Source of the DNA: a virus
Virus record (IMG/VR): IMGVR_UViG_3300044692_000050
Span: 38,341 to 102,340 of that record
Length of the DNA stretch: 64,000 nt
Strand: one strand, 5' to 3'
Shown: in pieces, positions 4,837 to 7,254 of the stretch
Numbering within the stretch: the first letter of the stretch is position 1
How the letters are laid out: each line of letters begins with the position of its first letter
The notes under the pieces: model-generated
What the model saw: the letters and a program-made list of their open reading frames with translations, nothing else
What the model was told of the DNA's origin: nothing
The model's database searches: none
Translations under genes and position numbers: made by a program

Positions 4837-7254
4837 GTGAGCGAGCAGGAACGCCCGGACGTGCCGGACTGGGCAGAAGCCGGGGAAGATGAGGCGCTTG
4901 AGGGTGTCGTCGTCCCGCTGCGCCCCGGCGCGCCCGAGCACGCTCTCGCCCCGTCGCCACGCCACTCCGCACCCGGCCAGCCAGGCGAGCTCCGGCAGAT
5001 CATCCCCGGCCAGTTCCGCTCCTGGGACGCGTTCCGCAAGCACTACGGCTGGCACCTGCACCGCGCCGGGCATCACGCCGCCTACCACCTGTTCCCGTCA
5101 CGGGCGATAACCCGGCTCGTCAACACCCTGCGGTATGCGGCAGTCGGCATCGGGAAGTTGCTGGTCGCGCTGATCGCCTGGTGGCACGTCGCCGAGCAGG
5201 CCTACCTGCGCAACGAGGCGGTCGCCGCGAACGACCCCCGGACTTACCTGCAACTGCAGAAAAACGGCAAGGAATCCCGCCTGACCCGCGGACTGGTCCT
5301 GCTCGCCTGCCTCGCCGCCGCGGTCCTCGCCGGCGCGCTGATCACCGTTCACGTCCCGCTGGCGTGGATCCCGATCGGCTGCGTCGCCGTCCCGCTGCTG
5401 GCCTGGGCCGGGCGTCCCGCCGACAAGCCCATCCTCGACTCTGCTGTCACCCCGGTCCACCTCGAGCCGCTGTCCCGCGAGGTAATCGTCCGTGCACTGA
5501 GCACCCTGGGCATCGGCGAGCTCACCAAGGCCATCGGCAGGGATCCCGAGCGCGCCGTGGTCCTAGTCGACCCGATCGTCCGCGACGGGCCCGGCTGGCT
5601 GGCCCGCCTCGACCTGCCGCACGGCGTCACCGCGTCGGCGGTCATGGACAAGCGCGAAGAACTCGCCTCCGGGCTGCGCCGCTCCATCGGCTGCGTGTGG
5701 CCCGAGAACGAGCGCAGGCGCCACCCCGGCGCCCTGAGCCTGTACGTGAGCCACGAGGACATGTCGCAGGCCTCTCAGCCGTCCTGGCCGCTGGCCAGGC
5801 GCGGCGCGGTGGACATGTTCCGGCCGGTCCAGTTCGCCACCGACCAGCGCGGCAAGCCGATCACGATCACGCTCATGTTCGTGTCCATCATCATCGGGAG
5901 CGTCCCGAGGATGGGCAAGACGTTCCTGCTGCGCCTGCTGCTGCTGATCGCCGCCCTCGATGTCCGCGCCGAGCTCCACGTCTACGACTTCAAGGGGACT
6001 GGTGACCTGGCAGCCCTGCGCGCGGTGGCGCACCGTTACCGGGTCGGCGACGACGAGGACGACATCGAGTACTTCGTCGCCGACATGCGCGCCCTGCGCG
6101 AGGAGCTGCGGCGGCGGACCAAGGTGATCCGCGAGATCGCCGAGAAGCAGCCGGCGCTGTGCCCGGAGAACAAGGTGACCCCGGAACTGGCCAGCCGTAA
6201 GGATCTCGGCCTGCACCCCATCGTGATCGCCGCCGACGAGTGCCAGGTGCCGTTCACGCACCCCGGTTACGGCAAGGAACTGGTGGAGATCGCCACCGAC
6301 CTCGCCAAGCGCGGCCCGGCTCTGGGCATGATCGAGGAACTGGCGACCCAGCGCCCGGACGCCAAGGCCATCCCGCGTGACATCAGCGCCAACGCCGTCC
6401 TGCGGATGTGCCTGAAGGTCATGGGTCACATCGAGAACGACATGATCCTCGGCCAGTCGGCACACAAGAACGGCTACAAGGCCACCATGTTCGACTTCGA
6501 TGACAAGGGCATCTTCTACTTCTCCGGCGAGGGCAGCGCGCCGCGGATCTGCCGCAGCTTCGAGATCGACGGCCCGGCCGCCACGAAGATCGCCGCCCGC
6601 GCCCGCGCCATGCGGGAGCAGGCCGGCCGGCTGACCGGCTACGCGCTCGGCCAGGATCAGGCCGAAGAGGTCCGCTCGTTCCTCGCTGACGTGCTGGACG
6701 TGTTCGGCGCTGACGCCAAGCTGTGGCTGACGACGATCGCCGACCGGCTGCACGGCCACGTCTCGGGCGCCTACCCGGACATCACCCCGGAGGCGGTGGC
6801 GAGCCAGCTCCGCGCCCTGAACGTGACCGTGAAGGACGTGCGGGAGCCGGGCCAGGCGGTGCGCAAGGGCTGCGAGTGTACGGGCGTGCTCGCGGCGATG
6901 GGTGATGCGGTCCCGTCCGACCCGCCGCCTGCGCCCCGCCCGGTGCCGCAGCGAGCGCGCGCCGATGCCGTGCCGGATCCCGAAGCGCCCGCGCCGGCGG
7001 ATGACTGGCCGCACGACTTCCAGGATCTGCTCCTCCATGCCGCCGAGCTCATCATCACCACCCAGCACGGCTCAAAGCAGATGCTGCAGCGCAAGCTCCG
7101 GGTCGGGTTCGACCTCGTGGCCCGGATCATGGCCGAGCTCCAGGCCGCGAGGATCGTCGGACCGGAGAACGGCACGCCGGCGCGGGATGTCCTGAAGCGT
7201 CCGGAGGAGCTTGAGGTGACTCTTGAGATGTTGCGGGGAGCGGTCCATGCCTAG
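4837..7254 (+). CDS. TraB-like FtsK/SpoIIIE DNA translocase with extra C-terminal FtsK gamma domain
   Basis: N-terminal TM segments, Walker A [9 protein letters not shown], Walker B IAADECQ, ATQRP motif, wHTH-like segment, then [27 protein letters not shown] (FtsK gamma). Confidence 0.88.
   Translation: [805 protein letters not shown]

Follow-up and report, generated by a model that had tools for sequence, protein, structure and literature searches.

A TraB-like translocase with an FtsK gamma domain appended to its C-terminal winged helix, encoded on a siphovirus contig

TraB is the standard example of a pump for chromosome segregation that has been converted to conjugation, and it has a DNA-reading tail of its own instead of the gamma domain. 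The TraB protein of the Streptomyces venezuelae plasmid pSVH1 consists of a membrane-associated motor resembling FtsK and, C-terminal to it, a winged helix, which is described as recognising the 8-bp repeats of clt (Vogelmann et al. 2011, as related in PMC4447253), and the TraB recognition sequence (TRS) of this plasmid is GACCCGGA (PMC5133688). In the FtsK of Escherichia coli, the gamma domain owes its specificity for FtsK-orienting polar sequences (KOPS) to residues N1296, R1300 and E1303, known as KOPS-blind positions (PMC2533119). The contacts of this domain with XerD are Q1288, R1289, R1292, I1293, G1294 and N1296, and the same surface binds DNA as well as XerD (PMC5052618). Here, we describe a traB-like gene found in a stretch of 64,000 nucleotides (hereafter referred to as the window) corresponding to positions 38341-102340 of the 102,340-bp IMG/VR virus record IMGVR_UViG_3300044692_000050. 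Its product resembles pSVH1 TraB in having a membrane-associated FtsK-like motor and then a C-terminal winged helix, and candidate counterparts of the 8-bp repeats and Spd-type neighbours of pSVH1 traB lie close to the window gene. However, pSVH1 TraB stops after one winged helix, with no match to the gamma family of Pfam, whereas in the window protein a linker and a true FtsK gamma domain follow; moreover, unlike its pSVH1 counterpart, the window gene lies on a 102-kb contig with a complete siphovirus morphogenesis module.

Two winged helices behind a TraB-type motor

The traB-like open reading frame (ORF) has a GC content at third codon positions of 0.91, a strong coding signal, and its 805-residue product is confirmed as a TraB-like FtsK-family translocase ending in two separate winged-helix domains. 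An AlphaFold2 model of the full protein, built on an alignment of 116 sequences (mean predicted local distance difference test [pLDDT] score of 84.4), gave the order hydrophobic helices, RecA-type motor, winged helix, low-pLDDT linker and second winged helix. The C-terminal part with the two winged helices (aa 612-805), together with the stop codon, occupies nucleotides 6670-7254. The N-terminal hydrophobic helices are likely to form a membrane anchor. Residues G354, P357, R358, G360, K361, D467 and E468 of the motor were invariant across 116 homologues (3049 homologues of the protein were found), and a sequence search matched the motor to the FtsK motor chains 2iut and 2ius of the PDB (E ~1e-6). 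The Pfam FtsK_SpoIIIE score of the motor was below threshold (18.8 bits), and the NCBIfam FtsK equivalog NF007615 gave only 23.9 bits, for a cut-off of 1566, which does not identify the protein as a chromosomal FtsK. It does have two features of a TraB: an FtsK/SpoIIIE-like motor with Walker A and B motifs, homologous to the characterised pSVH1 TraB (BLASTP, 29% identity over aa 231-627, about 400 residues, E 6e-34), and a winged helix directly after this motor, according to both the AlphaFold2 model and fold searches. The best plasmid matches were genes annotated as 'FtsK' on small plasmids of Streptomyces (47% identity) and Pseudonocardia (42%), adjoining DUF2637 genes.

In the model, the first winged helix (aa 612-689) comprises helices at 615-623, 631-641, 651-660 and 681-688 and strands at 628-630, 666-669 and 675-680. 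Residues 606-692 folded alone had the same topology (pLDDT of 83). A Foldseek search of the PDB with this unit returned winged-helix matches only (MarR, PadR, Cdt1, ORC and Fur/PerR, E 0.02-0.14), and VIA-align, which is independent of Foldseek, retrieved LOTUS, Rex, Zalpha, cullin WH-B, histone H1 and Cdt1 (Z 5.1-7.0). The individual scores are middling and provide modest support, yet all the matches belong to one fold class, the winged helix. The BLASTP alignment with pSVH1 TraB extends from the motor into helix 1 of this domain (FLADVLDVF versus LLAAVLEVF), and an iterated profile of the domain matched a plasmid protein of Streptomyces sp. NBC_00562 (E 8.5e-24). The first domain is, thus, well supported as the positional equivalent of the clt-recognition C-terminus of pSVH1 TraB. 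The possibility that it is a diverged gamma domain detectable by sequence was rejected, as hhalign found no match between the profiles of the two domains (probability 0.2%). FtsK gamma was also not among its top structural matches with Foldseek or VIA-align, but this absence is no proof one way or the other.

The second winged helix (aa 725-805) is a genuine FtsK gamma domain, very similar to that of the chromosomal FtsK of Actinomycetes. Pfam FtsK_gamma (PF09397) matched aa 730-786 with an E value of 6.8e-14 (51.8 bits, for a cut-off of 30.6), a search of the contig with the FtsK gamma family gave 56.9 bits, and the solved gamma chains 2j5o, 2ve8 and 2j5p matched aa 731-789 by sequence. The AlphaFold2 model shows helices at 728-742, 747-754, 758-770 and 789-804 and a short wing (pLDDT 84-97), that is, a three-helix winged helix, C-terminal to an FtsK-type motor and behind a flexible linker. 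The linker displays only 31% identity among gamma-bearing homologues. Chromosomal FtsK gamma domains from five Streptosporangiales genomes (Streptosporangiaceae among them) align collinearly with the window gamma domain through the last helix and, because of this collinearity, the sequence comparison places the origin of the domain in an actinobacterial chromosomal FtsK. Window and chromosomal domains are also alike in lying C-terminal to an FtsK-type motor behind a flexible linker, and they are roughly half identical (by eye). The window protein differs from chromosomal FtsK in its TraB-type motor, in the winged helix inserted before gamma and in recognition-helix and wing residues that depart from the invariant chromosomal set.

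An earlier note on this DNA had proposed a TraB-type winged helix followed by an appended FtsK gamma domain, quoting peptides that are indeed present in the translation of 4837-7254. Both assignments stand: structure prediction yields two winged helices rather than one, as separate units on either side of a linker with pLDDT values below 50; the first occupies the place of the pSVH1 clt-recognition domain, and the second is recognised by the gamma family of Pfam and by the PDB gamma chains. A fusion or frameshift artefact was ruled out, as the two domains are read in one uninterrupted frame in each of 12 independent metagenome loci and in 29 protein clusters. No stand-alone or split gamma ORF was found beside the gamma-less traB genes of the genome, IMG/VR and metagenome loci surveyed.

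Distribution and residue pattern of the gamma domain

With a profile for each domain, we tallied how often the two domains occur in several sets of homologues. The first domain was present in all 120 of the nearest clusters at 90% identity, 29 of which also had gamma. Among 150 representatives of clusters at 50% identity, the first domain was found in 91 and gamma in eight. A set of 80 species-representative genome loci and a set of 27 IMG/VR loci together provided 100 loci with the first domain and none with gamma in the traB frame (0/107), whereas 12 of 80 metagenome loci had gamma, each time sharing one unbroken frame with the first domain. The tandem is, therefore, not the norm among TraB homologues, a possibility that the earlier note had considered; it is a real but uncommon variant of TraB. 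In gamma-less relatives, the protein continues for only about 5-15 residues past the first winged helix. In a protein tree inferred after removal of the gamma domain, gamma-bearing and gamma-less sequences were interleaved within a clade of 60-70% identity, with 11 state changes in all. The tandem is, thus, a minority architecture, labile and patchily distributed. The gamma-less TraBs of the same clade (for example P0035, P0044, P0121 and the Streptomyces sp. NBC_00562 plasmid gene L003:4791-7043) are 58-68% identical to the window protein over aa 1-690 and have the same first winged helix, downstream partner genes and proximal repeat arrays.

Gamma was located at the N-terminus in four of the eight gamma-bearing broad representatives, three of which passed the Pfam cut-off. 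These are the distant TraB-like proteins P0207, P0226 and P0269, with a Pfam-confirmed N-terminal gamma (aa ~6-99), and P0187, which is similar but below the cut-off. Several TraB-like homologues of 1000-1180 residues, namely P0187, P0232, the gene at L186:1952-5356 and proteins of roughly 1010-1040 residues, have a HINT/intein insertion in the motor (Pfam PT-HINT, Intein_splicing). Among phages, the FtsK-like translocases of Gordonia and Mycobacterium phages (for example Gordonia phage Dmitri gp52 and Mycobacterium phage Purky gp55) are, like the window protein, phage-borne, and their gamma domains are 44-55% identical to that of the window. A tblastn search of 50,697 phage records (E <= 1e-5) gave matches only to gamma (aa 728-802), the motor and first winged helix having no counterpart in these records.

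The chromosomal gamma domain was compared across 31 published Actinomycetes genomes from all over the class (loci L113-L117 and L201-L230, without L202, L218, L219 and L225, which come from unpublished genomes and did not enter the residue counts). It was invariant over a 24-residue stretch and SEGSKAR in all 31, and this identical core implies a shared, strongly constrained reader of a guide motif. The 33 C-terminal gamma domains borne by TraB proteins have kept the hydrophobic core and R752, K753, R755, R783, V785 and L786. They retain the fold and the QRxxRxG motif but evolve fast, with variable recognition-helix and wing positions: entropy reached 2-2.5 bits at positions 759, 763, 767, 769, 770, 772, 777, 778, 780 and 781, and 1.75 bits at position 760. 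The residues of E. coli FtsK were mapped through an ungapped PDB alignment. The KOPS specificity residues N1296 (also a XerD contact), R1300 and E1303 correspond to A, R and D in 31/31 chromosomal gamma domains, to D759, R763 and A766 in the window protein, and to variable residues among the TraB gamma domains. The remaining XerD contacts, Q1288, R1289, R1292, I1293 and G1294, correspond to Q, R, R, V and G in the chromosomal domain, all of which are retained in the window protein, as Q751, R752, R755, V756 and G757.

A tree inferred from gamma alone placed the chromosomal sequences on one side of a branch with a Shimodaira-Hasegawa-like approximate likelihood ratio test (SH-aLRT) value of 88. 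The window sequence formed the longest terminal branch of this tree (1.03, for a median of 0.14). Two Streptosporangiales genomes (G001 and G004; L118, L119 and L120) carry additional gamma-bearing frames besides the chromosomal FtsK, with the diverged recognition helices GHACQ, QAAVA and MPALG.

Candidate DNA targets and the role of gamma

Two sets of 8-bp repeats lie close to the traB-like gene. The proximal set, of the CCGNNACR type, is located around and just past the stop codon; of 59 near-clade loci, 24 had at least three copies of one such 8-mer no more than 300 bp from the traB stop, versus 28 of 1180 control windows (2.4%), and the central dinucleotides of these arrays differ between near-clade loci. 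Array scores were the same for gamma-bearing and gamma-less loci (mean of 5.8 for both). The distal motif, GACCYGGA, has 34 matches in the window, versus 8.5 expected, five of them within 113 bp. This five-member cluster, at 9509-9621, consists of copies of GACCTGGA, the only exact 8-mer anywhere on the 102-kb contig to reach four copies or more within 150 bp, and one copy of GACCCGGA; GACCYGGA is equal or nearly equal to the pSVH1 motif. Distal clusters of exact 8-mers are also common in gamma-less loci. Both arrays are good candidates for clt, neither of them tied to gamma. The earlier note had mentioned repeats at 7.3 kb and 9.5 kb; an assignment of one repeat set to each domain did not hold as a simple mapping, given the equal proximal scores and the distal clusters of gamma-less loci. 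More generally, a dense, element-specific 8-mer cluster was present in 114 of 147 TraB-like loci, with up to 15 copies, typically 2-8 kb downstream of traB (for example L020:17387, L025:19057 and L065:16429); these clusters constitute a rich set for studies of clt diversity.

We propose that the window protein is a TraB-family conjugative translocase of double-stranded DNA, in which a membrane anchor is followed by a hexameric motor of the FtsK type and then by two winged-helix modules that are independent of each other. DNA binding by either module, and any target, are predictions. The first module, as the counterpart of the pSVH1 clt-binding domain in position and fold, would most probably target the CCGNNACR repeats where traB ends; the GACCYGGA cluster, located 2.3 kb downstream, would be a possible addition or alternative. 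Gamma, tethered by a flexible linker, has kept the QRxxRxG surface, and its recognition-helix and wing residues have moved off the invariant host type; it may act as an optional second address reader, loading or orienting the motor on an element-specific motif rather than on the host KOPS-type motif. We consider it an even call whether gamma is indeed an optional second DNA-guidance module with a specificity unlike that of host FtsK. A broader version, in which TraB-like translocases have repeatedly recruited gamma at either end as a swappable, fast-evolving address reader for oriented loading on element-specific polar motifs, here helping a temperate phage genome of 100 kb, equipped with its own conjugation module, to pass from cell to cell, is speculative and, in our estimation, improbable.

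Several results weigh against gamma as a second guidance module. Gamma has repeatedly been lost within the clade. The window domain is the most diverged copy, with a mean identity of 54% to the other TraB gamma domains, versus 65% among those others. Relative to its nearest relatives, P0002-P0004, the motor is 82-84% identical and gamma only 54-58%, and this divergence would fit relaxed constraint as well as it would a new specificity. No repeat class or polar 8-mer could be linked to gamma, as both types of array also occur in gamma-less relatives; a search of the contig for a KOPS-like polar 8-mer gave CCGTGGTC as the best candidate (14:0 strand skew, z 3.7), rejected as non-significant among about 32,000 words. 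For the first module, the iterated profile is collinear with aa 687-763 of pSVH1 TraB with a non-significant score, and its putative recognition helix is near-invariant in a clade in which the repeat 8-mers differ at the central two bases.

Relaxed constraint is the core of one alternative, according to which gamma entered by one fusion to the tail of an FtsK and has since become a passenger that the protein can spare and is in the course of losing; in this copy, it would have no specific function. Its repeated absence among close relatives, the long terminal branch and low identity to peers of the window domain, and the unique substitutions F744H, A761V and G762A at otherwise conserved positions are all consistent with such a history. 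However, the frame is intact in 12/12 independent metagenome loci and in 29 protein clusters, the hydrophobic core and the six residues listed above for the TraB gamma domains are invariant, AlphaFold2 folds the domain with high pLDDT values, and the independent N-terminal fusions in distant TraB-like proteins suggest repeated selection for the combination. We consider decay of this kind unlikely. A role for gamma mainly in activating a tyrosine recombinase of the Xer type (the XerD of the host or a related enzyme), coupling DNA arrival to multimer resolution or integration, as FtsK gamma does at dif, is possible but also improbable. Five of the six E. coli XerD contacts are kept in the window protein and are conserved in 27-33 of the 33 TraB gamma domains; a nine-residue stretch around these contacts is sufficient for activation (PMC5052618), and variable sequence-reading positions would be tolerable if DNA specificity no longer mattered. 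Nevertheless, this conservation cannot separate a DNA-binding role from a XerD-binding role, because the same surface binds DNA in FtsK (PMC5052618). The contig also has a tyrosine integrase of its own, and most relatives do without gamma. No dif-like site was detected on the 102-kb contig, the best match (16/28) equalling that in shuffled sequence, with loose probes modelled on E. coli and Bacillus subtilis dif rather than on an actinobacterial consensus, making this a weak negative.

The earlier note had also envisaged mobilisation of the host chromosome, with gamma reading the host FtsK-orienting motif. Gamma does derive from a chromosomal FtsK gamma, and pSVH1 TraB mobilises chromosomal DNA via clt-like sequences (PMC5133688, PMC3429521). 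Nonetheless, such a reading is disfavoured because the recognition-helix and wing positions vary from those of the near-invariant chromosomal gamma: at two of the three positions equivalent to KOPS-blind residues, the window protein departs from what is invariant in the host (A759D and D766A, giving D/R/A rather than A/R/D), with L in place of the adjacent K760 and ENGTP in place of SEGSK in the wing. We would be surprised if gamma served this purpose here.

Whether or not gamma is a second guidance module, there is a natural TraB subgroup with both readers in tandem, or with gamma at the other end, and the close relatives with and without gamma make comparison possible. This system is suited to asking what gamma adds (orientation, loading or recombinase activation) and to studying the evolution of winged-helix specificity once free of chromosomal constraint. 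Because of the phage context, one may also ask whether TraB-type conjugation offers a tailed prophage an additional way of spreading.

Genomic context of the traB-like gene

The coordinates of the protein domains, repeats and neighbouring genes are given in Table 1. The traB module (window 2.2-12 kb) contains a DUF6919 gene, traB, two conserved small genes, a DUF2637-like gene and genes for Xis-like helix-turn-helix proteins. In metagenome loci, homologues of the small genes immediately follow traB in 10 of the 12 with gamma and in about 35 of the 68 without, and they do so in L006-L014 and L086-L089 as well; the two genes are, thus, a conserved partner pair in most near-clade loci, with or without gamma. 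A DUF2637 gene is also annotated beside the TraB-like gene on the Streptomyces plasmid NZ_CP107792. The neighbourhood may be of the Spd type: it has a DUF2637-like gene and small membrane or zinc-finger genes, but it lies on a phage-like contig on which no Rep gene was identified.

Table 1. Positions of the traB-like gene, its domains, nearby repeats and partner genes in the window
Feature	Position	Strand	Basis or remarks
traB-like gene, FtsK-family double-stranded DNA translocase	4837..7254	+	805 aa, GTG start; ORF and translation
Hydrophobic N-terminal helices (aa ~87-192)	5095..5412	+	AlphaFold2 helices 87-117, 134-172 and 174-192; hydrophobicity read from translation
RecA-type motor (aa ~200-600)	5434..6636	+	Walker A aa 354-362; Walker B D467, E468
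Family-wide C-terminal winged helix (aa 612-689)	6670..6903	+	AlphaFold2 topology H-β-H-H-β-β-H; fold searches
Pro/Ala-rich disordered linker (aa 690-724)	6904..7008	+	pLDDT <50 at aa 690-717
Appended FtsK gamma domain including C-terminal helix (aa 725-805)	7009..7251	+	Pfam PF09397, PDB chains, AlphaFold2
Five 8-mers CCGNNACR / YGTNNCGG at 7229, 7271, 7281, 7369 and 7386	7229..7393	.	Around and past traB stop; candidate clt
Two small genes travelling with traB: 7368-7841 (157 aa) and 7831-8097 (88 aa, CxxC motifs)	7368..8097	+	Homologues by traB in relatives
DUF2637-like membrane protein gene (Spd-like partner of TraB modules)	8795..9898	+	Pfam DUF2637, E 0.001, below cut-off
Five GACCYGGA 8-mers, both orientations	9509..9621	.	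Inside 3' part of DUF2637 gene

The left part of the contig (positions 1-38400 are covered by L004 and L005) carries the tyrosine integrase gene (L004:2792-4192), a methylase gene and early-type genes, and the traB/Spd-like module lies between these early-type genes and a complete siphovirus late region (window 16938-52345) encoding an HNH protein, large terminase, portal, protease, major head protein, tail terminator, tape measure and minor tail protein. All are on the one 102-kb contig, with a CheckV completeness estimate of 98%. No att repeats or tRNA were found at the contig ends, and no boundaries were found for the traB module. Four other IMG/VR loci (L090, L099, L104 and L111) also have TraB-like genes with homologues of the large terminase and portal no more than 10 kb away. 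A NUDIX gene, typical of the integrative and conjugative elements of actinomycetes (AICEs), is located upstream in the gamma-bearing metagenome locus L133. Finally, AT-rich palindromes, TTATCA-N4-TGATAA, are present in three to four copies at L005:17800-17970 (contig ~37800-37970, just to the left of the window) in this genome of 70% GC; two of the copies are identical 18-mers, giving the group the look of an operator array.

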